Virus record (IMG/VR): IMGVR_UViG_3300027857_000001
Location: 1-64,000 of that record
Length of the DNA stretch: 64,000 nucleotides
Strand: one strand, 5' to 3'
Origin: a virus
This document shows, piece after piece, positions 15,031 through 35,800 of this stretch. Below the pieces are notes generated by a model. That model made no database searches. It saw only the letters and a list, made by a program, of their open reading frames with translations, and had not been told where the DNA came from. The first letter of the stretch is position 1. The number at the start of each line of letters is the position of its first letter. Made by a program: the position numbers and the translations under genes.

Positions 15031-15415
15031 CCGTGCCCTAGGAGGGTTCGGCGAAACCCTTAGCTCCTGGTAGGCGGTGCGGGCAGGGGCTTGCCGGGTG
15101 GGGCTGACCCCAGATTCCGGTACTGGTTACCCCAGGAACGTGAAGAACGGGCGGCAGGTGATCTGCCGTCCGGTCTTGCTGTCTGCGGTGACTGCCTTGA
15201 CGTTCGACGTCACGCCACGCCTTGGCTGGCTTCCGGGTGTACGCCGCCTCCGGTTCTTACCCCGGGCGTGTCTGCCCGGTCTCCGGTGTCGCCGGGCACG
15301 GGGCGGGACTCCTGCTCGCGGATGACCTCGGTGAGCCGCTGCTGGAGCTGAAAATTTATGATCCTTACCCCAAAGGCGCGCGCCCAAGGCTGACAAGCTT
15401 GGTATACATGCGCCC

Positions 15416-15592
15416 ATGGACGACCTGCTGTATGGAACCTCCCAGGAGGACGGCAACTACTCGCATGCCGTTGACCCGTCTGACCGCACCGTCAGTATCT
15501 GCGGGAGGATTCAGAACCCCACGGTGAACGGGGAGTCATGGGCAGATGCCCCAGCGCCGCGCTGCCAGGAGTGTACGGCGCAAGCGCGCTGA
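15416..15592 (+). CDS. Small putative Zn-binding protein (58 aa, not in ORF track)
   Basis: MDDLLYGTSQEDGNYSHAVDPSDRTVSICGRIQNPTVNGESWADAPAPRCQECTAQAR: H...CG...CxxC pattern; ends just before a terminator. Confidence 0.45.
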   Translation: MDDLLYGTSQEDGNYSHAVDPSDRTVSICGRIQNPTVNGESWADAPAPRCQECTAQAR

Positions 15593-15606
15593 CGGCTGAT
15601 GTATCG

Positions 15607-15646
15607 AACGGGACGGCCGCCTGCATGGCCGTCCCGTTTCCGTTTT
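15607..15646. terminator. Terminator hairpin (shared with element B)
   Basis: AACGGGACGGCC / GGCCGTCCCGTT stem plus T-rich tail; near-identical inverted copy at 28369-28405. Confidence 0.75.
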
Positions 15647-15680
15647 GGCGCGGCGCTTGACGGCTACTGTTGCTGCTTGG

Positions 15681-15872
15681 CTAGCTGGGGGCAGTCTCCC
15701 GCTTGAACACGAACGGCGGCTGGAGGCTGATCAGTTCCCAGCCTTCGTGGCCGAGGGCGTTGAGGATTCCCTCGATCTCGTTGACGTGGTTCTTCTCTAC
15801 TGAATCGGCCAGGCTCTTGTGGGTGCCGCCGACCATGACGGTTCCCCTGCCGAGGACCTTGTACTCTGGCAT
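15681..15872 (-). CDS. DUF4177-like small protein
   Basis: EYK...IEGILNALGHEGWELIS...FKRE. Confidence 0.6.
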   Translation of the reverse strand: MPEYKVLGRGTVMVGGTHKSLADSVEKNHVNEIEGILNALGHEGWELISLQPPFVFKRETAPS

Positions 15873-15909
15873 GCTGGTCTTCCTTCCTCGTGGTGCTTGC
15901 CGGCCCGGC

Positions 15910-16404
15910 CTACTGGCCCGACTGGATGGGGAACTGGACGGGCGCCATGGGTGTCTGGATCGCCCTGATCGCGTAGGTAGCCATCTCCTTGCTATCGAGC
16001 CACAGTACGAGCGTGTACATGCCGGGCGCCGGGATCTCGACGTTGGTCACGGTGACGGCGAACGGCACCTGTGCCGGGTCGCCGAAGTGGGCCTCCAGCG
16101 ACGGTGCGGTGCGGAACCCCGCCTCGACGCGGACCGGCAGCTCCTGGCCGTTCTCGCCGCGCACGCCGACGCGGATCATCCGGTCGGTCATGGTGTCCTG
16201 GAACGGAAGTTCGAGCACTGCGGTGATGCCGAGCGTTGGCACGAGCGCCGGGAAGGCGTGGAAGCGCAGCAGCGTGATGAACCCGCCGTTCACGTACACC
16301 TTGCCGTCTGCCCCTGAGGCAGCGTGGTCGGATGCGAAGAACGCCACGACCCTGGTTGCTGTCAGCCGGGCTGGCGAGTCGGGGGCGGTGCTCTCCTGTG
16401 TCAT
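15910..16404 (-). CDS. DUF6941-like Ig-fold protein
   Basis: DHAASGADGKVYVNGG...PAPGMYTLVLWLD. Confidence 0.55.
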   Translation of the reverse strand: MTQESTAPDSPARLTATRVVAFFASDHAASGADGKVYVNGGFITLLRFHAFPALVPTLGITAVLELPFQDTMTDRMIRVGVRGENGQELPVRVEAGFRTAPSLEAHFGDPAQVPFAVTVTNVEIPAPGMYTLVLWLDSKEMATYAIRAIQTPMAPVQFPIQSGQ

Positions 16405-16454
16405 ACACGAATGATATCTTCTGTATTACCAAGGCTCAAGCAGAGGAGGGCAAG

Positions 16455-16802
16455 TTGCTCGACGTGGGGAAGTACGACCTGATCGACTGGGATGACCCGG
16501 AATCCGACCCGGACCCGGCCACGAACAACCTTCTCCACTGCCAGCAGGCGGACCACCTCGGAGCGCAGGCTGAGCTGGTCGTGTACGAACTGCTCGCCGG
16601 GGTATGGGCCGAGGTGAACTTCAAGACCATGACCGCGCAATGGGCCATCGTGGGGCTGGCACTGTCCCGGGTGTGGCTCGTACTGTTGAAGGAATCGGAG
16701 AAAAGAGGCGACTGGCTCCGCCCGGTCACCGGGTGGCCGGCCGAGACCGCTGAGATCCGGCAGTGGGAGAAGCTGACCGGGCAGAAATGGAGGGGACGAT
16801 GA
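16455..16802 (+). CDS. BrnT/RelE-like toxin candidate
   Basis: TTG start after GAGGAGG; DWDDPE..NNLLHC...WAIVG...WLVLL...RPVTGWPA pattern; ATGA-coupled to an RHH gene. Confidence 0.4.
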   Translation: MLDVGKYDLIDWDDPESDPDPATNNLLHCQQADHLGAQAELVVYELLAGVWAEVNFKTMTAQWAIVGLALSRVWLVLLKESEKRGDWLRPVTGWPAETAEIRQWEKLTGQKWRGR

Positions 16803-17092
16803 CCGCCGACCGCCCCCAGGGCCTGATAGAAGACGCCGGGCAGGCCGGGAAGCCGCGCCGCCTGGACCAGATGGTGTCCGCCCGGCTCGACCCGCCGCTC
16901 GTCGCGGCACTGCGACGCTTCGCCAAGAGGCGCGGCATCACCTTCAGCGACGTGATCCGGCTGGCCAGCCTGAACCTGCTGGCCCGCGAGGACGCCCAGA
17001 ACGTCATCGTCTTCTCAGTCCGGGTGACCAACGAGACACTGCCGAAGGCGGTCACCCGTTCGTACTGCGAGGAAATCCCGGCCGCCATCTGA
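16799..17092 (+). CDS. Ribbon-helix-helix (CopG-like) antitoxin candidate
   Basis: QMVSARLDPPLVAALRRFAKRRGITFSDVIR. Confidence 0.6.
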   Translation: MTADRPQGLIEDAGQAGKPRRLDQMVSARLDPPLVAALRRFAKRRGITFSDVIRLASLNLLAREDAQNVIVFSVRVTNETLPKAVTRSYCEEIPAAI

Positions 17093-17252
17093 TCATCCGG
17101 GCCCAGCCCGGCGTTGTGCGGGGCTGCCATCCGCTGCGGAAATCGAATGTGTGGCCGTGCCGGCTGGCGGGTGTTTCCGGGGTTTCCCTCATCCGCCCCG
17201 GCGCGGGAGCGTACCTGTCCGCATGCCCGGTGGTCCGGCCGGCACGGCCGGC

Positions 17253-17663
17253 TCAGTTACCCGGTGGCGGGGTGGGGATGAGTGCCCATGCGGTGCGCCC
17301 GGTGTCGTCCCCGGTGATACCCCAGTTGCCGGGTCCGGTGAGGATCTCGGTCACGTCGAGTCCGTGTGCCCGCCCGTCCGCGTGGCGGCCTCGCCGCCAT
17401 GGACCGCCGGCGTCCTCGACCTCGATCCGGATGTGACCGTGGCGGATCTCGGCGCGGAGGGTGAACTTACCGCCGTTCCCGGACGCGGAATGGAGTATGG
17501 CGTTGGTGGCGAGTTCGGATGCGACTAAGGTCGCGTCGTCGGCGGCGGGATGGCCGTGCAGCGCCTGTGTGAGCGCGCGGCGCGCGTGGCTGACTTGTGC
17601 GGGTTCTGCGGGGTAGGTTCCCTGGAACCGTCTGGTGCCGGGTGGTGCCGCCGTGTCGTCCAT
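17253..17663 (-). CDS. RsbW-like HATPase (ATP-binding protein), copy A
   Basis: LVASELATNAILHS, IRIEVEDAGG, GRAHGLDV, GRTAWA; divergent from XRE. Confidence 0.85.
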   Translation of the reverse strand: MDDTAAPPGTRRFQGTYPAEPAQVSHARRALTQALHGHPAADDATLVASELATNAILHSASGNGGKFTLRAEIRHGHIRIEVEDAGGPWRRGRHADGRAHGLDVTEILTGPGNWGITGDDTGRTAWALIPTPPPGN

Positions 17664-17780
17664 CGTGTCCCCTCCGTGCTGTGCTGGCCTATTGCCGATC
17701 ACACAGTGAAGGGGCACGCTTTAGCTACGTGACCGAACTGCCCGCCACGATCCGCCACGGTGATTCTGGAGGCATGCCAC

Positions 17781-18611
17781 ATGACACGGCGCGACCCTGA
17801 CACCGACCCGCGTGCGTTCCTGGGCGGCGAGCTTCGGCGCGGCCGGATGGCTGCTGGTTTCTCCAGCCAGGAGGCGCTGGCCGCCAAGCTCGGGTTCGAC
17901 AGGACCGTTGTCACGAAAGCGGAGACAGGGAAGCGCCCGCCCACGGCGGACGTGCTGGTGGCGTGGTGCGTGGCGTGCCGTATGGACGAGGAACTATTCA
18001 CGCGGCTGGCCAGGCTGGCGCGTGCCAGTGACGGGCCGGTACCGACGTGGTTCGAGGACTGGCTTGAGGCTGAGGGTGAAGCTCAGTCCCTCCGGATCTG
18101 GTCCCCGACCCTGATACCGGGACTGCTCCAGACAGCGGACTACGCCCGTGCGCTGTTCCTGGCCGCGCAGTCCGACACCAGCGATGACCTGATAGACGGG
18201 CTCGTCACGGCGCGGCTGGAACGGCGGGCGATCCTGGACCGCGCCGGCCCGCCTGATGTGGTGGTGGTCCTGGACGAGGTGGTCCTGCACCGGCTGATCG
18301 GCACGCACGAGATCATGCGGGACGCGCTGGTGCAGGTCGCGGAACTGTCCCGCCGGCCGAACGTCGTTGTGCAGGTGATCCCCGCATCTAACGGCGCTAA
18401 CGCGGGCCTCGGCGGCGCGTTCGACATCGCGGCGGCGGACGGCATGCCGGACACGCTGCGGATGGAAGGCGTGGAAGACCAGACGATAGAGAAGCGCTCC
18501 CTGGTGCGCAAGGCGGCGGTAGCGTTCGACCGGGTGCGCGGGGACGCGATGTCACGGGGACAATCGAGAGACCTGATTCTGAAGGTGGCAGAGGAAATAT
18601 GGAAGCCATAG
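17781..18611 (+). CDS. XRE HTH-DUF5753 regulator (WhiJ/Scr1-like), copy A
   Basis: N-terminal XRE HTH; IPGLLQTADYARA, ARLERRAIL and VLDEVVLHRLIG motifs. Confidence 0.9.
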   Translation: MTRRDPDTDPRAFLGGELRRGRMAAGFSSQEALAAKLGFDRTVVTKAETGKRPPTADVLVAWCVACRMDEELFTRLARLARASDGPVPTWFEDWLEAEGEAQSLRIWSPTLIPGLLQTADYARALFLAAQSDTSDDLIDGLVTARLERRAILDRAGPPDVVVVLDEVVLHRLIGTHEIMRDALVQVAELSRRPNVVVQVIPASNGANAGLGGAFDIAAADGMPDTLRMEGVEDQTIEKRSLVRKAAVAFDRVRGDAMSRGQSRDLILKVAEEIWKP

Positions 18612-18808
18612 ACCACGGCTGGCGCAAGGCCAGCTACTCAGGGAACGGCGGAGGCAACTGCGTCGAAGTGGGGCAGGACGCGGACGGGACGATCCTGGTC
18701 CGCGACACCAAGGACAGCGGCACCGGGCGAGTGCACCGCATCTCATCGGCTGACTGGCGCACGTTCCTGGCACGTGTGCGCTGCGGCGATCCCGGCACGC
18801 ATGGTTAG
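18599..18808 (+). CDS. DUF397 protein (BldB/Scr2-like), copy A
   Basis: WRKASYSGNGGGNCVEVG...VRDTKD...W..FL..V. Confidence 0.92.
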   Translation: MEAIDHGWRKASYSGNGGGNCVEVGQDADGTILVRDTKDSGTGRVHRISSADWRTFLARVRCGDPGTHG

Positions 18809-18968
18809 GGCTGTTATCGCATCGGATGAACCTCGTTATCCGCTCTCTCTGGTTTTAGCCCAGTGCGGGTGATTACTGTACCCTCATGGCACCAGGATCG
18901 TCACTTGGAATGCTGCGGCTGACGAGGCTTACGTTCTGTGCGCATCCAGTTGCTGGGCCGGGAGCATC

Positions 18969-19484
18969 GTGATGACACTCCCAGCTTGGACGGAAGTGGG
19001 TTTACTACCTGCTGGCGCGCACCGGTCAGACATGCCTGGCATTTATGACCGCTTCGTGCTTGATGCCCCGCATCGGGATCACCGGGAACTGCTGTTCAGC
19101 GCGTTGACAACACATCTCCGGCTAATGCAAAGGATCATTCCTGCTGGCGTAGCTTGGATAGATGGAAGCTTCGCCACGTGCAGAGAGGAACCACCGGAGG
19201 ATGTGGACGTGGTGGTCCTGCCGATGGACTGGGCTGCGGTCAGGTCGCTGCCTGATGTGGCGCGCATGAACCTTCATGCGCTCCTGACCCTCAAGGAGGT
19301 CTCCATCGCGCACCCGGAAGACCTCTGGTTCTCCAGGTTGCAGCCCATAGGCGGCCTGGTAGACGCCTACCTGTGCGCACCTGGCCAGGAGGCGACATGG
19401 CAGGAGACGTGGTCGCGGGTAGTCGATGCTAAGGGTGTGGTCATCGATGGCCAGGTCAAAGGCTTTGCGGAGGTGACGTGGTGA
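18969..19484 (+). CDS. DUF6932-like minimal nucleotidyltransferase
   Basis: GLLPAGAH N-terminus; WIDGSFAT...PEDVDVVV (GS-DxD). Confidence 0.7.
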   Translation: MMTLPAWTEVGLLPAGAHRSDMPGIYDRFVLDAPHRDHRELLFSALTTHLRLMQRIIPAGVAWIDGSFATCREEPPEDVDVVVLPMDWAAVRSLPDVARMNLHALLTLKEVSIAHPEDLWFSRLQPIGGLVDAYLCAPGQEATWQETWSRVVDAKGVVIDGQVKGFAEVTW

Positions 19485-20359
19485 CCAAGAGCTTCAGCGA
19501 GGCCCGGCAGGAGATCACGGGCGACTCGTGGCTGGACAAGCTGGCCCGCGCGTCGCTGCTGGCTGCGGAGGCGAAGTTTTCCGGCCGTGAGATTCCGCTA
19601 CTCCGGGTTGTCGTCTCCGGGGTGCGCACTATCGATGCTTACGACTCGTCGCAGGTCACAAAGGCTGTCCAGGACGCGACTGCGAAACTCGGCCACACAA
19701 TCAGCTTCCCTAACGCGGACAGGTCCAGCGCACTCGCCGCCGACCGCGAACGGGCACGATTGATCCAGCGAGGCCAGACCGGCAACGTGATCATCTTCGG
19801 GTTCCCTGAGCCCAGGACCCACGAGGACATCCTTGGTCTCACCGTTGAGACGCTTGCGGAACGGGCAGTCCGGGAACTTGTCAGTGTGCTCCCAGGATCG
19901 ACGGATGACGATGCCTCGCTCGACGCAGTGCTGGCTCAGCGCCTGACCGTCCGTAATGCAGTCAACGACATCGCGCGCGCGGTGCCGCAAAGTGCGGCCG
20001 GCCTCGGATTTCACATGGCCTCGGCTGACGGCGAAGAGATCGACTCGGTTCTCTCACAGGAGCAAGCGACGGTTCTCAAGAGCAGCCTCGGTGAATCGCG
20101 GGTTGACCGCCGCACGGTGACGGTTGCCGGCCGTCTGGACGGGGTTCGCACAAAGCGCCGCATCTTCTACCTCGAACCGGATTCAGGCCCAGAAATTCAT
20201 GGCGCTATAGAACTGGAGCTGATGGAGACGGTTAGGGCCAGTCTCGATCAGCGCATTATTGCCACGCTTGAGGAAGAGCGCACGCGGACCCTCGCTGGTC
20301 GGCAGAGTGGCCGCCTGTTCCGCCTTGTCAGGATCGAGTCGGCCCCAGGAATTTTCTAA
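19478..20359 (+). CDS. Hypothetical partner of the nucleotidyltransferase
   Basis: Translationally coupled; C-terminal beta-rich TVAGRLDG...IFYL region. Confidence 0.6.
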   Translation: MVTKSFSEARQEITGDSWLDKLARASLLAAEAKFSGREIPLLRVVVSGVRTIDAYDSSQVTKAVQDATAKLGHTISFPNADRSSALAADRERARLIQRGQTGNVIIFGFPEPRTHEDILGLTVETLAERAVRELVSVLPGSTDDDASLDAVLAQRLTVRNAVNDIARAVPQSAAGLGFHMASADGEEIDSVLSQEQATVLKSSLGESRVDRRTVTVAGRLDGVRTKRRIFYLEPDSGPEIHGAIELELMETVRASLDQRIIATLEEERTRTLAGRQSGRLFRLVRIESAPGIF

Positions 20360-20497
20360 GCAGTGGAAATTCCGGGGCGTCTGTGCATCCTTTTTGTCAG
20401 ACCCTGCCGCTATTATCGGAGTGAGAAGAAAAGGAAATAGCAAGCGGCCCCCGCGACGCGCCAACGTCCGAGGGCCTGGACCAAGGAGCGCAACTCC

Positions 20498-21595
20498 ATG
20501 GCCACTCCGACCATAGCACGCGACGCGTCGCACGTCGCCGCTCTGCTCGACAGCCCTGAGATCGCCGCGCTGATCGGTGAGCTTGAGGCGACCCGGTGGA
20601 CCGGCCGTCCCGGCTACCCGCTCCGCTCCCTGCTCGGCCTGGTCCTGGTCAAGAGCGTGTACTGTATCCCGACGTGGACCCGGGCCGTGTCCCTGGTCCG
20701 TGACCATGCCGCGCTGCGGGACGTGCTCGGCGCTGCCCCGTCCACGGACGCGTGCTACAGGTTCGCCCGCAAGCTCCGCAAGCACAGCGCAATGCTGGCG
20801 GAATGCACCACGCGGATTCTCGGGGAACTGCATTCCCTGCACCCGGATATGGGCAGCACCGTTGCTATTGACGGCTCGGATCTTCCCGCTTACGCGAACG
20901 GGCAGAAATACGTTTCCCGTGGCGGGAAACTTCGGGAGCGGTTCTCGGACCCGGATGCGTCATGGGGTCACCGCTCATCCATTTCCACCCGATCGGGCGG
21001 CGGGTACTATGGCTATAAAATTCACGCGGCCGTTGACGTCGCGACCGGGCTGCCGCTGGCGTGGGAGGTCCGGACTGCGAAGGACTCAGAGATACCACTC
21101 GTGCCGGACCTGCTGGACGCCGTGACCGCGCTCGGGTTCACGCCGGGTGTCGCCGTGCTCGATCGCGGGTACGACTCGCAGGCTGTCTATGAGGAGATCG
21201 AGTCGCGGGACATCCGCCCCGTCATCCCGCTGCGTGAAACCAAGGCCGTCAAGGACGGCCAGCACCTTCCCCCGTCCTGCGACCACGGCACATGGACATT
21301 CGCTGGGTCCGACACCAGGCGGGGAGCGTCGAAGTGGCGGTGCCCGACCGGCGAGTGTAAGCCGGCGTCGGTCTGGCTCAAGGCTGACCGGCTCCACACT
21401 CTCATCCCGCGCACCACCCCACGGTGGAAGGCGTACTACCACAAGCGGTGCGCCGTCGAGCGGGAGTTCGGCGTCCTCAAGCACCAGTGGGCACTGCTGC
21501 CGCTCCGCGTCCGGGGACTCGCGAAAGTCCGCCTCCACGTGAACCTGACCATCCTCGCCCAGCTCGCCGCCGCGCTCCTCAAAGCCCGGACCTAG
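20498..21595 (+). CDS. DDE transposase (IS4/IS5/IS1182-like), element A
   Basis: VAIDGS, GYYGYKIH, VLDRGYD, YHKRCAVEREFGVLK (Y-R-E-K motif). Confidence 0.9.
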   Translation: MATPTIARDASHVAALLDSPEIAALIGELEATRWTGRPGYPLRSLLGLVLVKSVYCIPTWTRAVSLVRDHAALRDVLGAAPSTDACYRFARKLRKHSAMLAECTTRILGELHSLHPDMGSTVAIDGSDLPAYANGQKYVSRGGKLRERFSDPDASWGHRSSISTRSGGGYYGYKIHAAVDVATGLPLAWEVRTAKDSEIPLVPDLLDAVTALGFTPGVAVLDRGYDSQAVYEEIESRDIRPVIPLRETKAVKDGQHLPPSCDHGTWTFAGSDTRRGASKWRCPTGECKPASVWLKADRLHTLIPRTTPRWKAYYHKRCAVEREFGVLKHQWALLPLRVRGLAKVRLHVNLTILAQLAAALLKART

Positions 21596-21844
21596 AACCT
21601 GCCCGTCCCGCACCCCGCCGCGAGCGGGACCACCGGCATGCCCGGACACGGGAAACCCGCCTCACACGCAATTGCGCGGCCGCACGGCACCCGCTAACTG
21701 GACACAGAGGACAAAAGTCCAGGTCAGTCCGCCATCCCGCTCGATGTCAGGTCGCTCAGCACCGGGTTTCGCCGGTCCTATCGCCGATCCCTCCTAGCGC
21801 GGCTCAGTAAAGGCAGTGAAATATGAGTGTGCTAGTATCTCAGC

Positions 21845-22993
21845 GTGAGCAGCCGGGTGGTGAAGCGGGCGTACAAGTACCGCTTCTACCCGACCCCGGA
21901 GCAGGCGGAGCTGCTGAACCGGACGTTCGGGTCGGTGCGGTACGTGTACAACCGGGCGCTCGCGGAACGGTCCCGGGCGTGGACACAGGACCAGAAGCGG
22001 GTCACGTTCGCGGAAACCTGCCGGATGCTCACCCAGTGGAAAGCGGACCCGGAGACATCCTGGCTGTACGAGGTATCCAACGTCGCGCTCCAGCAGGGGC
22101 TCCAGCATCTCCAGCAGGCATACCTGAACTTCTGGGGCAAACGCTCCGGGTACCCGACGTTCAAATCGAAACGGAAGTCGCGGGCATCAGCGACGTTCAC
22201 AACCTCGGGGTTCCGCTACCGGGACGGGCAGATCACGCTGGCGAAGATGGATGTCCCGCTGGATATCCGCTGGTCCCGCCCGCCGCCCGAATGCGCGGAG
22301 CCGTCCACGGTGACGGTCAGCCGGGACGCGGCCGGACGGTGGCATGTCTCGATCCTGGTCGAGGAGACGATCGAGCCGCTTCCCCCGGCGCCAGCATCGG
22401 CGGTTGGGGTCGATGCCGGGATAACGTCGCTGGTGACCCTGTCGACCGGGGAGAAGATCACCAACCCGAAGTGCGAGAAACGGGACCGCGCCCGGCTGGC
22501 GAAGGCGCAGCGGAACCTGGCCCGCAAGCAGAAAGGCTCCCGCAACCGGGCCAGAGCGCGCGTCAAGGTCGCCCGCGTGTATGCCCGGATCACCGACCGC
22601 AGGACCGATTTCCTGCACAAGTTGTCCACGAGGATCATCCGCGAGAACCAAACGGTGATCATCGAAGACCTGACCGTCCGCAACATGCTCAGGAACCATT
22701 CCCTGGCCCGCGCGATCTCCGATGCGTCCTGGTCGGAGTTCCGCAGGCAGCTGGAATACAAGGCGGACTGGTACGGCCGCACCGTCATCGCGGTCGACAG
22801 GTTCTACCCGTCGAGCAGGACATGCTCTGCGTGCGGCCGCCTGGCCGCGTCGATGCCGCTGAACGTCCGGGAATGGGCGTGCCCCGCGTGCGGCACAGTC
22901 CACGACCGGGATATCAACGCCGCGAGGAACATACGAGCTGCCGGGCTGGCAGTGCTTGCCTGCGGAGATGGCGTAAGACCTGCCCGCACGTAG
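21845..22993 (+). CDS. tnpB: TnpB RNA-guided nuclease (IS605/IS1341 type)
   Basis: AYKYRFYPT; RuvC D (GVDAG), E (IEDL), D (DRDINAA); CxxC..CxxC Zn finger. Confidence 0.95.
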   Translation: MSSRVVKRAYKYRFYPTPEQAELLNRTFGSVRYVYNRALAERSRAWTQDQKRVTFAETCRMLTQWKADPETSWLYEVSNVALQQGLQHLQQAYLNFWGKRSGYPTFKSKRKSRASATFTTSGFRYRDGQITLAKMDVPLDIRWSRPPPECAEPSTVTVSRDAAGRWHVSILVEETIEPLPPAPASAVGVDAGITSLVTLSTGEKITNPKCEKRDRARLAKAQRNLARKQKGSRNRARARVKVARVYARITDRRTDFLHKLSTRIIRENQTVIIEDLTVRNMLRNHSLARAISDASWSEFRRQLEYKADWYGRTVIAVDRFYPSSRTCSACGRLAASMPLNVREWACPACGTVHDRDINAARNIRAAGLAVLACGDGVRPART

Positions 22994-23097
22994 TGCTGGT
23001 AGGCGACCGTCCGTGAAACAGGAACCCCGGCCCGTGAGGGCCGAGAATCCCCTCCCTGAAGGAAGGGGAGAAGTCAAGCTAGGAGGGAACCCCGAAA
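22921..23097 (+). ncRNA. TnpB omega/reRNA: scaffold ending at TCAA (23074-23077), guide from 23078
   Basis: RE hairpin CCCCTCCCTGAAGGAAGGGG followed by AAGTCAA; scaffold overlaps the tnpB 3' end as usual for this family. Confidence 0.7.
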
Positions 23098-23279
23098 CGA
23101 GCCGCGAAACTCAGCGCGGCGCGGGTTCCGGGTTCCGGAGTTAGCGTCCGGCCTGCGGTTTTGTCCTGTCTGTCCGGTAGTGCGTGTCCGCGCGGGACCG
23201 GGCGCGATCTCATGGCCGCAATTCTCGTGTCCGGGCATGCCTGCGACCCCGCCAGCAGCGGGGTAATAGGCAGGGCTGC

Positions 23280-24383
23280 CTATGTCCGGGCGATGAGCAG
23301 CGCGGATGCGAGCTGGGCGAAGATGGTCAGGTCCACGTGGAGCCGGACGCGGTAGATGCGCCGGACCCGCAGCGGCAGCGCGCCCCACTCGTTCTTGAGC
23401 CGGCCGAATTCCCGCTCCACCGCGCCGCGCTGGTGATACAGGCTTTTCCATCGGGGCGTGCTGCGCGGGATCAGGGTGTGCAGCCGGTCCGCTTTCAGCC
23501 ACGTGGACGCGGGCGTGCACTCACCGGACGGGCAGCGCCACTTGGACGCTCCCCGCCTGGTGTCGGACCCGGCGAACGTCCACGTACCGTGCTCGCACGA
23601 CGGCGGCAGGTGCTTGCCGGCCTTGACGGCGGGTGTCTGCCGCACTGGGATCACCGGCCGGATGTCCCGCTCTTCCAGCAGCGTGTACAGCGCCTGAGTG
23701 TCATAGCCACGGTCAAGGACCGCGATCGACGGGGCGAACCCGCGCCCGTTCGCGGCGTCGAGCAGCACCGGCACCGTGGGTATCTCGCTGTCTTTCGCGG
23801 TCTGCACCTGCCACGCCACCGGCAGCCCGGTCACGATGTCCACGCACGCGTGAACCTTATAGCCGTAATACCCGCCGCCGCTGCGCGTGGAAATGGACGA
23901 GCGGTGACCCCATGTCGCGTCCGGGTCGGAGAACTTCTCGCGCAGTTTCCCGCCGCGTGACACGTATTTCTGCCCGTTCGCGTAGGCGGGAAGGTCGGAC
24001 CCGTCAATAGCGACCGCGCTGCCCATTTCCGGGTTGAGGGAATGCAGTTCCGCCAGCACCTTCTCAATGCACGACGTGAGCATGTCCCCATGGGTCCGCA
24101 GCTTGACCGTGAACCTGTAGCACGCGTCCGTGGACGGGGCCGCACCCAGCACGTCCCGCAGCCCGGCGTGGTCAGCGACCAGCGCGACCGTCCGCGTCCA
24201 CGTGGGCAGGCAGTACACGGACTTGACCAGCGTGATGCCGACCATGGCACGCACCGGGTAGCCGGGCCGGCCCGTCCACCGGGTCGCCTCAAGCTGGGCG
24301 ATGAGCCCGGTGATCTCCGGGCTGTCCAGCAGCGCGGCAACCTGTGCGGCATCGCGCGGGAGTGATACGGTCGAAGCGGCCAT
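23280..24383 (-). CDS. DDE transposase, element B
   Basis: Same motifs as copy A; roughly three-quarters identical by eye. Confidence 0.9.
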   Translation of the reverse strand: MAASTVSLPRDAAQVAALLDSPEITGLIAQLEATRWTGRPGYPVRAMVGITLVKSVYCLPTWTRTVALVADHAGLRDVLGAAPSTDACYRFTVKLRTHGDMLTSCIEKVLAELHSLNPEMGSAVAIDGSDLPAYANGQKYVSRGGKLREKFSDPDATWGHRSSISTRSGGGYYGYKVHACVDIVTGLPVAWQVQTAKDSEIPTVPVLLDAANGRGFAPSIAVLDRGYDTQALYTLLEERDIRPVIPVRQTPAVKAGKHLPPSCEHGTWTFAGSDTRRGASKWRCPSGECTPASTWLKADRLHTLIPRSTPRWKSLYHQRGAVEREFGRLKNEWGALPLRVRRIYRVRLHVDLTIFAQLASALLIART

Positions 24384-24670
24384 GGAGTTGCATCTCCTGG
24401 TCCAGGCCCCCGGAGTGTTACCAGCACTCGCGGGGGTCGCCCTTTATTTCCTTTTCCCTTCTCTTCGACTATATCGCTTGGGTCTGACATTTTCAGGGGT
24501 CCTGAAAGCCGCCATCGGCAGGAATTGTTGCTTTTCTAATATGGGCGAACTCGCGGGTTAATCCGGCCGCGCGCCTGCCGCGACGATGCTGAGAAGCCGG
24601 TGTGGCGTGGACGATTGGCCACGCCTGGCTATACTCTCAAGCAGCGCCTCAAGTAGCGCAGGCTGAATCG

Positions 24671-24744
24671 TGCCCCAGGCAGGGTTCCAACCTGCGACTG
24701 TCGGCTTAGCAGGCCGGCGCTCTATGCGACTGAGCTACTGGGGC
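24671..24744 (-). tRNA. Atypical tRNA-like gene: anticodon GCT on a class I, Arg(TCT)-like body
   Basis: GCCCCAG TA GCTC AGTCGCATA GAGC G CCGGC CTGCTAA GCCGA CAGTC GCAGG TTGGAAC CCTGC CTGGGGC A folds into a full cloverleaf (one C27:A43 mismatch); no encoded CCA. Confidence 0.75.
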
Positions 24745-24974
24745 TGGAGGCTGCGGAGCCACTGGTATGGCCCCGCAGCCAGAGTTAGCCCCGGGAGGGC
24801 TGGGTGTCTGAGCCCGTCGGTCCTCCCGGGGCGGCTTCTCTCATAGGCATTCGCTCCCAACTCAGGAAGTAAGCCGCGCTCCCACCGGAGCTTAGCGCAC
24901 TGAAGGCGTGCGTGGGGCGCGGTGATGGGCTTGCCGCCTCGCGTGTCCCTCCGGGCGGATCGGTGTAGGCGCGC

Positions 24975-25901
24975 ATGTCCCTCGGCGAGTTGCTGAATCG
25001 GTCCGGTGTTCCCGCTAAGATGCTCTTGGCGACACTTGGAGGAACGGCCATGCCGAGCGCAAGGGGACACGTGAAGGACGGGAAGAGCCCGACGGCCTTT
25101 CCGATCATCCCGCTCAAGGACGTAGTGGAAATGGCGTGCCTGATTGGCCGACGGGGCGGCAGGTGCCGATTTGATGAGCTTGCCAGCTCACTGGACCAGG
25201 TCAGGACCAGCGGCGCGTTCCGGGGGCGGACGGCCGCCGGCCGTATGTTCGGTGCAACAGAGACTGTCGGCAGTGAGCTGGTCCTTACCGACATCGGACG
25301 GCGCATGGCCGCGTCGCCCTCGGACGTGGACATGCTGGCGGAAGCCTTCCTGAGCGTGGAGCTATACGGGAAACTGTTCGACCGGTACGCCGCCGACGGC
25401 GGGAAGCTGCCTGCTGTAGACGTCATCGACGTGGACATCGAGCGTCTCGGAGTACCCGAGCACCGGGCGACCAGGGCGCGTCAGGTCTTCATCCGGAGCG
25501 CAGAGACCGCCGGATTCTTCCGCTCGGGTCGCGACCGGCTCATCCGCCCCAACGGAGGTAGCATCGCAGTCGGGCGTAGTGCCGTGCCCGAGCGCAAGGA
25601 GCCTGCGGAAGTGTTTCATCCAGAAGCAGAAGTGGTGCTTGCGATGCCAACGCCGGCACCGCCGTCGCACTCACTACCGCCGTCGCACTCACTACCGCCG
25701 TTGATGCAGGCGCTGGTGGACAGACTGCCGGCTGAGGGCGAGCGGTACACACCTCAGCAGCGCGAGCACTGGCTTGAGACAGCGAAGAACGTCCTCGACC
25801 TTGTCTACGTGGATGATGCACCCGCGCCGCCGTCTGCCAGCCCGAACGGGCACACAGGCTCGTACCCGGAACCGGTGATTCAACCCGAAACGCGGGCATG
25901 A
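24975..25901 (+). CDS. Winged-helix hypothetical protein (real start may be GTG 25071)
   Basis: wHTH-like N-terminus (DELASSL...SGAFRGRTAAGRMFG...LTDIG); ARQVFIRSAETAGFF. Confidence 0.55.
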   Translation: MSLGELLNRSGVPAKMLLATLGGTAMPSARGHVKDGKSPTAFPIIPLKDVVEMACLIGRRGGRCRFDELASSLDQVRTSGAFRGRTAAGRMFGATETVGSELVLTDIGRRMAASPSDVDMLAEAFLSVELYGKLFDRYAADGGKLPAVDVIDVDIERLGVPEHRATRARQVFIRSAETAGFFRSGRDRLIRPNGGSIAVGRSAVPERKEPAEVFHPEAEVVLAMPTPAPPSHSLPPSHSLPPLMQALVDRLPAEGERYTPQQREHWLETAKNVLDLVYVDDAPAPPSASPNGHTGSYPEPVIQPETRA

Positions 25902-26182
25902 CCAAGGGGCACCCCCGGCACGGGAATGCCCCCGTATGCGCGTCCCTGAGTTCGTCGGCCTAACGGCAGGCGTCCGGACTCGTCGAGGCCGAACCCGCCG
26001 CTGCGCACCCTGGCGATGAACGCCTGCCACTCGGCCTGGGCGCAGCGGTGGACCGGCCCACTGCCGTGCTGCTTGGTGTCGCGGACCAGGATCGTCCCGT
26101 CGGCGTCCTGCCCGATTTCGACGCAGTTGCCGCCGCCGTTCCCTGAGTAGCTGGACTTCCTCCAGCCGTTCACGTTTTCCAT
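25880..26182 (-). CDS. DUF397 protein, copy B
   Basis: WRKSSYSGNGGGNCVEIG...VRDTK. Confidence 0.9.
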   Translation of the reverse strand: MENVNGWRKSSYSGNGGGNCVEIGQDADGTILVRDTKQHGSGPVHRCAQAEWQAFIARVRSGGFGLDESGRLPLGRRTQGRAYGGIPVPGVPLGHARVSG

Positions 26183-27000
26183 TTCTCTTCCGCCACCTTC
26201 ATGATCAAGTCCCGTGACTGGCCCCGTGACAGCGCATCTCCCCGCACCCGGTCAAACGCTACAGCCGCCTTGCGTACCAGTGAGCGCTTCTCGACCGTCT
26301 GGTCCTCCACGCCTTCCATCCGCAGCGTGTCCGGCATGCCGTCCGCGCTGGCGATGTCGAACGCACCGCCGAGTCCGGCGTTGGCCCCGTTGACGGCAGG
26401 GATCACCTGCACCACCAGGAACGGGCGGCGTGACCACTCGGCCACCTGCACCAGCGCGTCGTGCATCACCTGCGGCGAGCCGATCAGGCGGTGCAGCACC
26501 GCCTCGTCCAGCACCACCACGGTATCGGGCGGGTCGCCCCGCTCGAACACGGCCTGACGCTCCAGCCGCGCCGACACCAGCCCGTCGATCATGTCCTCGC
26601 TGGTATCGGACTGTGCCGCAAGGAACAGCGCCCGCGCGTACTCCGCCGTCTGGAGCAGGCCCGGTATCAGCACCGGGGACCATATCCGCAGCGACTGCGC
26701 CTCATGCTCAGCCTCAAGCCAGTCCTCGAACCACGTCGGGACCGGCCCGTCACTGGCGCGCGCCAGCCTCGCCAGCCGGGTGAACAGATCCTCATCCAGC
26801 CCGCACGCGGAGCACCACGCCGACAGCACGTCCGGTGTCGGCGGGCGCTCCCCGGTCTCCGCCTTCGTGACGACTGTCCGGTCGAACCCGAGCCGGGCGG
26901 CCAGTGCCTCCTGGCTGCTGAACCCGGCCGTCATCCGGGCCCGGCGAAGTTCCCCGCCGAGGAACGCGCGGGGGTCGGTGTCCGGGTCGCGTCTGGTCAT
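26170..27000 (-). CDS. XRE HTH-DUF5753 regulator, copy B
   Basis: About 39 differences in 276 aa versus copy A by manual comparison (~86% identity). Confidence 0.9.
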   Translation of the reverse strand: MTRRDPDTDPRAFLGGELRRARMTAGFSSQEALAARLGFDRTVVTKAETGERPPTPDVLSAWCSACGLDEDLFTRLARLARASDGPVPTWFEDWLEAEHEAQSLRIWSPVLIPGLLQTAEYARALFLAAQSDTSEDMIDGLVSARLERQAVFERGDPPDTVVVLDEAVLHRLIGSPQVMHDALVQVAEWSRRPFLVVQVIPAVNGANAGLGGAFDIASADGMPDTLRMEGVEDQTVEKRSLVRKAAVAFDRVRGDALSRGQSRDLIMKVAEEKWKT

Positions 27001-27118
27001 CGTGGCAAGCCTCCAGCAGCACAGTGGCGGATCGTGGCAGGCGCATTCGTCACGTAAACCAAGCGTGCCCTTTCACGCTGTGATCGGCAATAGCCGGCAC
27101 AGTACGGAGGGGACAGCG

Positions 27119-27526
27119 ATGGAACACACGGCAGTCGAGACCTCAATGCGGCTGCTCCATGCCGTCTACCCCGCCGAGCCCGCGCAGGTCAGGCACGCCC
27201 GGAAAGCACTCGCCGGCCTGCTCGGCGACACCCCCGTCACCGACACCGCGCTGCTGATCGCGTCGGAGTTCGCCACCAACGCCGTCCTGCACAGCGCATC
27301 CCGCAACGGCGGGACGTTCACCCTCCGCGCCGGGATCACCGGCAGCACCCTGCGGATAGAAGTGGAAGACAGCGGCGGCGCATGGAACAGCCAGCCGCAC
27401 GACGACGGCAGGCCGCACGGGCTTGACGTGATAGAGGCATTCACCGGACCCGGCAACTGGGGCATCATCGGGGACGCCGGCGGGCGCACCGCCTGGGTCT
27501 ACCTCACCATCCCCGCAGCAGGGTAG
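27119..27526 (+). CDS. RsbW-like HATPase, copy B
   Basis: LIASEFATNAVLHS, RIEVEDSGG, GRPHGLDV, GGRTAWV. Confidence 0.85.
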   Translation: MEHTAVETSMRLLHAVYPAEPAQVRHARKALAGLLGDTPVTDTALLIASEFATNAVLHSASRNGGTFTLRAGITGSTLRIEVEDSGGAWNSQPHDDGRPHGLDVIEAFTGPGNWGIIGDAGGRTAWVYLTIPAAG

Positions 27527-27739
27527 CCCGCCGACAGCACGACGCCGGGCAAGATCCAGGATGACCCCGGACCCGCCCGGCGTGGCTTGCACGTTCCTGG
27601 CCTCGTTCCGTGGAACGATTGCCGGTTGGGAACTCACGGAACGTAGCGGCCGTTCGCAGCGGCTCTGGCTACGTTAGCGCTTTCATGCTGCCGCCGGCAG
27701 CAGGCGCGCCGTTCTGTTCCCTAACCGAAAGGGAACTCA

Positions 27740-28015
27740 ATGAGCGAATTCCTGATCACGTGCGTCCGGATGAGCGGGCGCACCGCTGCGGGCCATCACC
27801 ACATCGTCAGCGTGGGCGTCGGCGGCGAGCAGTTCACCGTAGAGGAGATCTACCAGGCAATCGATGCGGGACACAGGTTCCGCACTGCGAGCCCGTCATC
27901 GGGGACGGAAGCGCCCGTAGCCAAGTACCACTGCGCCTGCGGTCTTGACACGCTCCGCTCGCACTCGGACAAGTACTGGGACAACAACCTGGACAACCTG
28001 CCTGCGTGCCCGTAA
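27740..28015 (+). CDS. DUF3892 protein
   Basis: ITCVR...HHHIVSVG...LRSHSDKYWDNNLDNLPAC. Confidence 0.8.
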   Translation: MSEFLITCVRMSGRTAAGHHHIVSVGVGGEQFTVEEIYQAIDAGHRFRTASPSSGTEAPVAKYHCACGLDTLRSHSDKYWDNNLDNLPACP

Positions 28016-28312
28016 ATCCGCATCCGTCCTGATCCAGTCAATAGCATGATCAGCCGGGAAGGGACTGGCGCGAACCGGTTCCTTCCCGGCACGCGGATGG
28101 CAGGTATAGCCCATCGCGATCGCGATCGCGTCGGCGATCCACGGGATGAACGCGTCCGCGTCGGCCACGGAAATGTCAAGGGCATACCGGCCATCCAGCA
28201 GGAGCCCGATCTTCCCGCCATTGACTGGCATCGCGTCCAGGAACGGGACCCGGTGGCCATCTACGACCACACGGTGACTCTCAAAAGGGCCAACGATCTG
28301 ATAATCGCTCAT
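27896..28312 (-). CDS. Hypothetical protein
   Basis: ORF convergent on DUF3892; globular composition in the first ~100 aa. Confidence 0.45.
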   Translation of the reverse strand: MSDYQIVGPFESHRVVVDGHRVPFLDAMPVNGGKIGLLLDGRYALDISVADADAFIPWIADAIAIAMGYTCHPRAGKEPVRASPFPADHAIDWIRTDADLRARRQVVQVVVPVLVRVRAERVKTAGAVVLGYGRFRPR

Positions 28313-28368
28313 GTCGTCAGCTTCCCCTGGCTAGCGCACGCAACGCCAGTCCCGATCAGGGGCTCTTG

Positions 28369-28405
28369 AAACGGAACGGGACGGCCATGCAGGTGACCGT
28401 CCCGT
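28369..28405. terminator. Terminator hairpin, element B copy
   Basis: Reverse complement ACGGGACGGTCACCTGCATGGCCGTCCCGTTCCGTTT versus 15608 ACGGGACGGCCGCCTGCATGGCCGTCCCGTTTCCGTTT. Confidence 0.7.
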
Positions 28406-28711
28406 CCAAGCCATGCCCTGCCGCGAATCCACAGCATCACCACGGCGAGCCGTGACGCCCCGCTTCTTCCAGGAGCACCTGCATGCCCGCGACGGAACCG
28501 GGCGGAGTGTGGTTATCCCGCATGGGTTTTCCGGAGAGGCTGCAAGGTCAGGCTGGGTACCAACGTGACCACCCCCTCACGGTCCGGGAGATGAACTCCC
28601 GGCCACCAGGGTACCCGGAACATGGGGTAGACAGCGGCCGGATCTGGGGTCCGCGCTGACCAGCCACGACACCTAACCGCAGGCCAGCACCGTTTCGCAG
28701 AACCCTCCTAG

Positions 28712-34364: not shown

Positions 34365-34484
34365 GCCGTCCGCCGGGTTGCCGAGTCGGCTTGCCGCCGT
34401 CAGGCAGAACCCCATCCACGAATGCCCGGAGACTGACTCGCACCGTCTCGTGGTCGCAGCGATCGGCGCGATCTCAAGATGGAT

Positions 34485-35618
34485 GTCTCAGCAGATACGG
34501 CGCTGAGCGGACGTTGCGGCCGCAGAGGCCCCAGGGTCGAGGCGCTATTGAGGTGGATGTCTCAGCAGGTACGCACCCGAGCATGCGTTACCACCGCAGC
34601 CCGGCGGAGACTCGTGTTGCGTCGGCATCACGTCTCAGCGTTTACGCAGCTGAGCATGCGTTGCGACTTGACCGGGGTAGCGGTCAGGCCGACCAGGTAG
34701 GCGTCGTCTCAGCGTTTACGCAGCTGAGCATGCGTTACGACAACGCGCACGAACACAAGCGCACCTGGGACAGCCGGGTCTCAGCGTTTACGCAGCTGAG
34801 CATGCGTTGCGACCAGGACGAGGGCTCCACCCGCGGCCAGTCTCAGCTCAGTCTCAGCAGGTACGCAGCTGAGCATGCGTTGCGACGCCGCATGCACTCA
34901 TGGCACGGGTAGGTGGTGGTGGTCTCAGCAGGTACGCAGCTGAGCATGCGTTGCGACTCTTACAGGGTATGCTTCACCGTTCCTGGGATAACGGAGGTCT
35001 CAGCAGGTACGCAGCTGAGCATGCGTTGCGACCGCGCACACGCCACTGGCTTCGCTGCCTCGGCGTGGGTCTCAGCAGGTACGCAGCTGAGCATGCGTTA
35101 CGACGTCCAGGGTGCCTTCAGCCGCACGCTCCACCCACAGCGTCTCAGCAGGTACGCAGCTGAGCATGCGTTGCGACGCCGCATGCACTCATGGCACGGG
35201 TAGGTGGTGGTGGTCTCAGCAGGTACGCAGCTGAGCATGCGTTGCGACCGCGGAGTGGACATCCCGCCCGACGCATGGGATCTGAGGTCTCAGCAGGTAC
35301 GCAGCTGAGCATGCGTTGCGACTAGCGCTAAATTAGTGCTAACTTACCGTTGCGTGTGGTCTCAGCAGGTACGCAGCTGAGCATGCGTTGCGACCATGAG
35401 CGCGCCAGGATTGCCGAAGCGGTGCTTGAGTTCGTCTCAGCAGGTACGCAGCTGAGCATGCGTTGCGACCTTAACGTTGCCCTAGATCGAGTGCAACCAT
35501 TAATCCCGGTCTCAGCAGGTACGCAGCTGAGCATGCGTTACGACCGTAGGACAAACGTGAGGAGGCGACGACCATGGACATGGTCTCAGCAGGTACGCAG
35601 CTGAGCATGCGTTACGAC
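34485..35618 (-). CRISPR. CRISPR array: 16 repeats of 36 bp, 15 spacers of 35-39 bp
   Basis: Repeat (- strand) GTCGCAACGCATGCTCAGCTGCGTACCTGCTGAGAC; starts on + at 34485, 34559, 34632, 34706, 34778, 34851, 34922, 34997, 35069, 35142, 35213, 35287, 35359, 35434, 35509, 35583; first two degenerate (trailer). Confidence 0.97.
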
Positions 35619-35800
35619 CGCTCCCGGTTTTCACCGGGTATGGCCTGCGGGAATGCGGTGGCTTGCGAGCGGTCCTGAATGCTGGCCTCTAGCGGCTTAA
35701 CCGCCGCTCAATCCAGCCAGGGTTCGTGCCGTGTGACCTGCACGCGAGCGGCCCCCGGGGGTTCCGGGCACCACCGGGCCGCTCGCACGGACAGCCCGGG
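35619..35800 (-). promoter_or_regulatory. CRISPR leader
   Basis: Non-coding, adjacent to the non-degenerate end; inverted repeat GCGAGCGGCCC...GGGCCGCTCGC typical of actinobacterial leaders. Confidence 0.6.

Follow-up and report, generated by a model that had tools for sequence, protein, structure and literature searches.

Two WhiJ-type regulatory triads as probable passengers of IS5/IS1182-like cargo transposons on a phage genome

Few regulator sets of filamentous actinomycetes are as expanded, and as poorly understood, as the WhiJ/AbaA/BldB cassettes, whose multiplication and spread are unexplained in the papers that can be searched. Described loci of this type include whiJ (SCO4543), iosA-whiJ9-bldB9 of Streptomyces venezuelae (PMC10294661), and Scr1/Scr2 together with 14 further pairs of S. 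coelicolor (PMC6262351, PMC10364602). Two regulator triads of this kind, each composed of a HATPase gene, an XRE-DUF5753 regulator gene and a DUF397 gene, are present in the first 64 kb of the IMG/VR virus record IMGVR_UViG_3300027857_000001 (hereafter the window, 64,000 nucleotides of a 135,301-bp soil actinophage sequence with direct terminal repeats and a G+C content of about 70%). We consider it likely that they are genuine passengers of two distinct IS5/IS1182-like cargo transposons, designated Tn-A and Tn-B, that they constitute an autonomous WhiJ-type switch, and that the transposons provide a minor route for its spread.

The two modules, at 17253-18808 and 25880-27526, are inverted with respect to each other, and the Pfam calls in both are those of a triad of the WhiJ/AbaA/BldB type, with an XRE helix-turn-helix (HTH) domain followed by a full-length DUF5753, a DUF397 gene downstream and a divergent HATPase_c gene. 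The DUF397 gene overlaps the XRE stop codon by 13 nt, and the HATPase gene diverges from the XRE gene across a spacer of 63-117 nt. HATPase A has a weak match to the RsbA anti-sigma factor, and an N-box and DxGG are visible in the alignment; the motifs WRKASYSG, CVEVG and VRDTKD are found in DUF397 protein A. XRE A scores 130.9 bits against the NCBIfam Sco1979 family, for which the curated cut-off is 350, and is thus a relative that falls below membership. The initial annotation had stated that both elements keep an intact triad amid unrelated cargo, and this is borne out: each Pfam-defined triad lies inside a transposon bounded by terminal inverted repeats (TIRs), and no homology was detected between the cargo stretches of the two elements, whose only common parts at the DNA level are the triad block (17258-18739 versus 27525-26045, an inverted repeat of 80% identity) and the transposase block (20395-21654 versus 24489-23222, an inverted repeat of 77% identity). 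The figure of about 86% protein identity given there holds for the XRE regulators (86%) and does not extend to DUF397 (71%) or to the HATPase (56%). The span 17253-27526, which runs from HATPase stop to HATPase stop, also takes in the two transposases as well as a TnpB gene lying outside both transposons.

Insertion sequences (IS) that carry passenger genes are termed transporter IS in the ISfinder terminology, and IS5 elements generate a 4-bp duplication at a YTAR-type target. The ends of Tn-A and Tn-B are TIRs of about 20 nt with the consensus GAGGGTTTGGCGAAAC, accompanied by a CTAG target duplication. TIRs were searched for with the pattern CTAGGAGGG-N5-CGAWA and with a position weight matrix (PWM) built from the family ends. 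The pattern has four matches in the window, at 15038(+), 21797(-), 23079(+) and 28711(-), against none expected, and these form two inverted pairs; a PWM scan of the whole 135-kb genome gave no TIR matches beyond these four, the two ends of Tn-A scoring 32.7 and 28.3 bits. Among the 80 best genomic loci of transposase relatives, which constitute our transposase-side sample, both ends were recognised by PWM in 56 and an exact CTAGGAGG was present on both sides in 47. The elements measure 2061-5797 bp, always carry cargo, located on either side of the transposase and amounting to 0.9 kb or more of additional DNA, and share the 20-nt end consensus CTAGGAGGGTTTGGCGAAAC. CTAG occurs at both ends in 55 elements and, being palindromic, is uninformative on duplication; the informative exceptions, L058 (CTAC/CTAC) and L175 (TTAG/TTAG), are direct repeats, which indicates that the four terminal bases arose by duplication of a CTAG-like target. 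Recent transposition in the family is most evident from three identical 2796-bp copies with different flanks on three contigs of one metagenome-assembled genome (MAG; L068, L069 and L076), the triad-bearing elements themselves having been seen only as single, diverged copies.

Each transposase lies about 1.8 kb beyond the DUF397 gene of its element. Transposase A reaches 137.7 bits against IS1182 (cut-off 270) and 70.8 bits against IS5 (cut-off 140), and reaches none of the NCBIfam IS family cut-offs, so that by these sequence scores it is IS5/IS1182-like and outside either family proper. The block 20395-21654 (the transposase, about 100 nt ahead of it and about 55 nt after it), which alone is conserved between the copies and among the 80 loci, had been considered as a discrete 1.26-kb IS. 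This delimitation was rejected, the real ends being the outer CTAGGAGGG TIRs, and the block is an internal transposase cassette. A TIR-like match of its right end to 17216-17252 (score 32 versus 20.8±3.6; 3 of 300 shuffles) was likewise dropped, as it is unmatched in copy B. Viral contigs searched with the transposase, the XRE, the spacer open reading frame (ORF) and the left-flank gene yielded no useful relatives and showed no empty site, megablast found no plasmid match to Tn-A, and the transposase family had no match in 50,697 phage records.

The XRE/DUF397 module recurs within this transposon family. The clade of XRE A is tight, with more than 120 clusters (at 90%) that are 72-86% identical to it and nearly all 276 aa long, and in the 80 metagenome loci fetched as the XRE-side sample the clade XRE is paired with DUF397, save for a few contigs that end in or just after the XRE. 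The TIR PWM, applied to the 518 kb of these XRE-centred loci, gave 11 matches versus one in shuffles. In one complete element (L107/L108, 3160-8861) the clade XRE/DUF397 pair lies inside and the transposase is divergent from the XRE. A second complete but decaying element (L175, 5467-11241), with a frameshifted transposase, is located on the chromosome of MAG G003 (G003:C1), and its XRE/DUF397 pair follows the transposase, 180 nt from the TIR. Two partial cases (L103 and L163/L164) have a TIR 65-170 nt after DUF397. The G003 genome (7.2 Mb) contains three transposase loci, and its sole clade XRE lies inside one of them. The module is thus upstream of the transposase and co-directional in Tn-A and Tn-B, upstream and divergent in L107, and downstream in L175, which argues for repeated capture or rearrangement: with three architectures in four complete elements, the XRE/DUF397 clade entered the transposon family several times or was reshuffled within it. 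Its presence there in several architectures means that the transposon can move such cassettes between chromosomes and phages. No XRE-DUF5753 or DUF397 gene was found within 10 kb at any of the 80 best transposase loci.

The share of the clade that the transposon carries is small. Of the metagenome loci in which 3 kb or more of sequence follows the module, 2 of 19 have a TIR, as does 1 of the 17 in which 3 kb or more precedes it. Among representative genomes searched at E ≤ 1e-70, the clade is present in 1/401 of the class of G003, 2/301 of the order and 13/151 of the family, always as exactly one copy per carrying genome, and of the 13 family genomes only G003 has a transposon-borne copy. The other 12 showed no such transposase (E ≤ 1e-15, the same query recovering G002 and G003) and no TIR within 1.5 kb. 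Such a patchy single-copy distribution suggests that the clade moves horizontally by a route other than this transposon. The clade copies of this family were observed at unrelated loci, L191 and L175 aligning only over the module. At the level of the whole regulator family, G002 and G003 have 37 and 22 DUF5753 matches and only 2-3 transposase loci, with one DUF5753 match inside an element, and the 123 Streptomyces plasmids of PLSDB that encode DUF5753 regulators include none with this transposase. The closest DUF5753 homologues are for the most part, although not in every case, chromosomal and away from the transposase or a TIR, as exemplified by L092 (82% XRE identity), whose neighbours are ABC-transporter, Old Yellow Enzyme (OYE)-oxidoreductase and glutamate-synthase-like genes. 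Since most close homologues are chromosomal without transposase or TIR, the transposon is an occasional vehicle. The earlier proposal that such transposons are the vehicle of triad expansion is accordingly retained as far as carriage is concerned, in at least four complete and two partial elements, and must be given up as a general account, most close relatives being single-copy and chromosomal: the transposon is a minor carrier and not the main cause of the expansion of the WhiJ-type family.

Several points weigh against our interpretation. The HATPase was not found in the other transposon-borne modules, so that the XRE/DUF397 pair, and not the triad, is what recurs. The data fit repeated capture as well as one ancient capture with later rearrangement and loss of ends, and do not separate the two. 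The transposon-borne fraction of about 10% is drawn from only 17-19 informative loci, and most metagenome contigs are 1-5 kb long, so that a TIR 2-4 kb away is not visible. The AlphaFold model of the XRE, built with 22 close sequences, is of low confidence, with a predicted local distance difference test (pLDDT) score of 60.6 overall and about 40-55 in DUF5753; sequence searches of the PDB with the XRE matched the HTH part only.

It is possible, though doubtful, that the clade has been repeatedly recruited by one transposon family because the module benefits the element, either by stabilising it or by plugging into the WhiJ/BldB network of the host, BldB paralogues being known to hetero-oligomerise (PMC10294661). 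If this were true, the transposon or the phage would sense or alter the developmental state of its host, and a first mechanistic handle on the spread of the cassettes would be obtained.

The phylogenetic position of the two copies bears on another possibility, namely that a single ancestral triad transposon was duplicated in inverted orientation in the phage and its cargo then replaced, in which case the shared passenger would reflect common descent and not selection or capture. The similar divergence of the triad and transposase blocks at the DNA level, the membership of XRE A and XRE B in one small clade, and the HATPase kept by both A and B and lacking in the other transposon-borne copies would agree with such a history. 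However, a quick IQ-TREE run on 88 XRE rows gave the topology (A,(B,L098)) with 96% support in the Shimodaira-Hasegawa-like approximate likelihood ratio test (SH-aLRT), XRE B being 91% identical to L098, from another metagenome, and 86% to XRE A. Several metagenomic transposases share 80% identity with transposase B, and at least five are closer to it than transposase A (76%). Tn-A and Tn-B are therefore not a recent local duplication, and these data already suggest that A and B would not be sisters for either gene in a joint tree. In addition, the cargo differs on both flanks of the triad, and each element has its own TIR pair and CTAG sites. We regard this scenario as unlikely. On the same tree, the transposon-borne XREs fall in at least four places, and the label requires five changes, as few as which were needed in only 2 of 500 shuffles. 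The L098 locus itself, a 9346-bp metagenome contig, contains a region of 68% DNA identity to phage positions 89094-89756 and a ParB_N-like match that is weak (E 4e-4) and does not reach the Pfam cut-off; no TIR or transposase was found in the 8.4 kb downstream, and the contig may represent a related mobile element.

The XRE/DUF397 pair could instead be a toxin-antitoxin (TA)-like addiction module, a role that the initial annotation had raised, which would stabilise the transposon or the carrier phage. Such pairs, which also occur on plasmids, have been predicted to be mobile type II TA systems (PMC2701414), the 13-nt gene overlap resembles that of TA operons, other cargo of TA type (PIN and SocA/Panacea) occurs in the transposon family, and in one bacterial family the clade has a patchy, single-copy distribution. 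Yet no toxicity was observed on over-expression of DUF397 proteins from S. coelicolor pairs (14 pairs, PMC10364602; earlier Scr1/Scr2, PMC6262351), the pair was found to be enriched on chromosomes and not on plasmids (Makarova et al., PMC2701414), and PADLOC gave nothing beyond the HTH, so that this alternative seems to us quite improbable.

Our preferred explanation, that of passenger cassettes which function as autonomous switches, is consistent with the organisation of the divergent promoter. In an alignment of 61 upstream regions, conservation throughout the clade was seen for the box TAAGCTA, for the palindrome GTGRC-N11-GCCAC, for the tandem GCCACGATCCGCCAC and, at the start codon, for another GCCAC, and this conserved motif is, from sequence, a plausible candidate for an autoregulatory operator. 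We propose that the XRE-DUF5753 protein would bind the GTGRC-N11-GCCAC and GCCAC-N5-GCCAC sites in the 117-nt divergent promoter and would regulate its own gene and that of the AbaA-like HATPase, and that the translationally coupled DUF397 protein may modulate the XRE, by analogy with what has been proposed for WhiJ/BldB loci. Within the two transposons, the motif occurs only at both XRE promoters, apart from one chance-level palindrome at 24602, and the motif scan found no operator-like motif at the transposase leader or the TIRs of Tn-A and Tn-B. The transposase leader, which starts with TTGTCAGACCC, is conserved in elements without triad or regulator too, and occurs in L005, L007, L008, L015, L017, L021, L028, L107 and L175 (L021, from genome G005, enters as a single row in the leader and transposase-block alignments and in one paralogue count, and no conclusion rests on this genome). 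It folds into a GC-rich hairpin with compensatory changes from G-C to A-U and from C-G to G-C, and a second stem pairs the ribosome-binding site (RBS) and the start codon region. What had been annotated as a pre-transposase block is thus probably, on the basis of these alignments and folds, a family-wide RNA hairpin leader for translational control of the transposase rather than an XRE site. As the transposase is equipped with a structured mRNA leader of its own, found across the family, the cassette probably does not act on transposition, and it would most likely act on host or cargo genes, like the other cargo of the transposon family. The idea that the triad regulates transposition finds no support here, and its developed form, in which the triad is the transposon's own regulator, with the XRE controlling the transposase and DUF397 and the HATPase relaying a host signal that makes transposition conditional, is very unlikely: although the XRE, DUF397, cargo and transposase of Tn-A are co-directional with short gaps, about a quarter of the family members possess an XRE-type HTH (including a 73-aa and 88-aa HTH_3 pair after the transposase), and L007 and L015 encode GntR regulators, that of L007 beside a HATPase, the clade-wide motif is absent from leader and TIRs, the leader with its hairpin over the RBS and start codon is equally conserved without any regulator, the position and orientation of the module relative to the transposase vary, and DUF5753 occurs in none of the 80 best family loci.

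The features of the locus are collected in the table below.

Table. Coordinates of the two transposons, their genes and associated features in the window
Feature	Position	Strand	Evidence and remarks
Tn-A, 6760-bp cargo transposon	15038-21797	+	CTAG at 15038-15041 and 21794-21797; TIRs at about 15042-15057 and 21778-21793
Tn-A far-side cargo, DUF4177	15681-15872	-	Pfam
Tn-A far-side cargo, DUF6941	15910-16404	-	Pfam
Tn-A far-side cargo, ribbon-helix-helix (RHH)/CopG-like	16763-17092	+	Pfam
HATPase_c_2 gene A, AbaA-like	17253-17717	-	Longest ORF; probable start ATG 17663, giving 136 aa; Pfam E 1.4e-9
Divergent promoter region of triad A (117 nt)	17664-17780	.	TAAGCTA, palindrome GTGRC-N11-GCCAC, tandem GCCACGATCCGCCAC at 17729-17758
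XRE-DUF5753 regulator A, WhiJ-like, 276 aa	17781-18611	+	Pfam HTH_31 and DUF5753 (DUF5753 E 4.9e-45)
DUF397 protein A, BldB-like, 69 aa	18599-18808	+	Pfam E 5.7e-18
Tn-A inner cargo, DUF6932	18969-19484	+	Pfam; PADLOC PDC-M63A E 1.7e-14
Tn-A inner cargo, 293-aa ORF	19478-20359	+	Partner of DUF6932
Transposase A, DDE_Tnp_1, 365 aa	20498-21595	+	Pfam; leader 20394-20497
TnpB, 382 aa	21845-22993	+	Pfam HTH_OrfB_IS605, OrfB_IS605 and Cas12f-like TNB; E 4.9e-33, 3.6e-28 and 9.1e-22
Tn-B, 5633-bp cargo transposon, inverted relative to Tn-A	23079-28711	-	CTAG at both ends
Transposase B, DDE_Tnp_1, 367 aa	23280-24383	-	Pfam; leader 24384-24490
Tn-B inner cargo, tRNA-Ser(GCT)	24670-24744	-	ARAGORN
Tn-B inner cargo, 308-aa ORF	24975-25901	+	No Pfam or NCBIfam match; homologue inside the L007 element
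DUF397 protein B, 100 aa	25880-26182	-	Pfam E 3.1e-19; tail of about 40 aa after the domain
XRE-DUF5753 regulator B, 276 aa	26170-27000	-	Pfam HTH_31 and DUF5753, E 2e-45
HATPase_c_2 gene B	27062-27526	+	Probable start ATG 27119; Pfam E 3.2e-8
Tn-B far-side cargo, DUF3892	27740-28015	+	Pfam
Tn-B far-side cargo, 103-aa ORF	28019-28327	-	
Hairpin, transposase-distal part of both transposons	28375-28414 (Tn-B); recurs at 15599-15638 (Tn-A)		GC-rich, AACGGGACGGCC ... GGCCGTCCCGTT

Among 88 cargo ORFs taken from 45 elements, Pfam identified HTH_3/HTH_31 (10), GntR (3), DNA methylase (3), PIN (2), Mrr (2) and SocA/Panacea (1), besides others, and the family cargo is of regulator, toxin-antitoxin-like and restriction/defence type. 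The DUF6932 and 293-aa pair adjoins the transposase upstream in Tn-A and is also found, at 53-58% protein identity, in a chromosomal element of MAG G003 (L015, 8443-9842) together with a GntR gene; homologues of the far-side cargo of Tn-B occur in this same element. The L007 element encodes a HATPase 52% identical to HATPase A, beside a GntR regulator, and shares with Tn-B the sequence beside the hairpin (about 28390-28533) and the end region 28644-28711. The tRNA gene of Tn-B, located between the leader of transposase B and the 308-aa ORF, is an unusual cargo for a transposon. In five checked elements (L040, L044, L065, L066 and L073), hosted by four Solirubrobacterales MAGs and one Solirubrobacteraceae MAG, a two-gene operon follows the transposase on the opposite strand, convergent with it, and encodes two proteins, one of 72-84 aa, which in two of the elements matches HTH_20 weakly, and an HTH_3 protein of 86-90 aa; this convergent operon may be the transposon family's own regulator pair.

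The TnpB gene is situated in the 1281-bp spacer 21798-23078 and is part of neither Tn-A nor Tn-B; a longer overlapping ORF (21823-23016), first taken as the spacer gene, is in the wrong frame. As TnpB lies between the two transposons, the locus is a nest of three mobile elements, and Tn-A and Tn-B probably inserted head to head on either side of a TnpB element, in the accessory region of the phage. Transposition of the entire 13.7 kb as a composite, by means of the outer TIRs at 15038 and 28711, would in principle be possible. Elsewhere in the window, a regular, CRISPR-like array of 16 direct repeats with a spacing of 71-75 nt was observed at 34484-35631.

The kind of cassette described here is known, and its carriage in a transposon is the new part: no WhiJ-type cassette inside a transposon was found in the searchable literature, in which no paper joins whiJ, transposase and paralog. 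The cassette occurs inside intact transposons with TIRs and target duplications, in two copies on a single phage and also in a chromosome and in soil contigs, which is direct sequence evidence for one physical route by which it spreads between chromosomes and phages. In the sampled genomes this route accounts for about one clade copy in ten and almost none of the paralogue load, and it constitutes a useful test case, without explaining the expansion. The copies are compact, look autoregulated and have a clear candidate operator, which makes them convenient for electrophoretic mobility shift assays (EMSA) and genetics. The cassettes resemble the Streptomyces whiJ/abaA/bldB loci in their divergent HATPase_c gene, their XRE-HTH with DUF5753 and their overlapping DUF397 gene with KSSYSG, CVEV and VRD(S/T)K motifs. 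They differ in that the XRE shares no more than about 30-35% identity with its homologues in Streptomyces and on plasmids, and in being known here from genes alone, located inside a TIR-bounded transposon on a phage and belonging to a clade that is single-copy per genome. With the predicted Xre/DUF397 TA system (PMC2701414) they share the overlapping two-gene operon, the presence on mobile replicons and the uneven expansion across genomes, whereas the HATPase partner is an addition of the window and experiments on the S. coelicolor pairs revealed no toxicity. XRE-DUF5753 proteins of about 30% identity are encoded in 14 phage records, corresponding to about ten distinct cultured actinophages. 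The carriage of such regulators by temperate actinophages has a precedent in Success, Samy, Darolandstone, Austintatious and other Streptomyces phages, although at this low identity and not reported inside transposons. Finally, the transposons are comparable to IS5/IS1182 elements and to transporter IS in their DDE_Tnp_1 transposase with a DUF772 N-terminus, their short TIRs, their 4-bp CTAG duplication and their passengers, and are distinguished from IS5/IS1182 by scores below the family cut-offs, by at least 0.9 kb of extra DNA, by cargo on either side of the transposase and by the structured leader.

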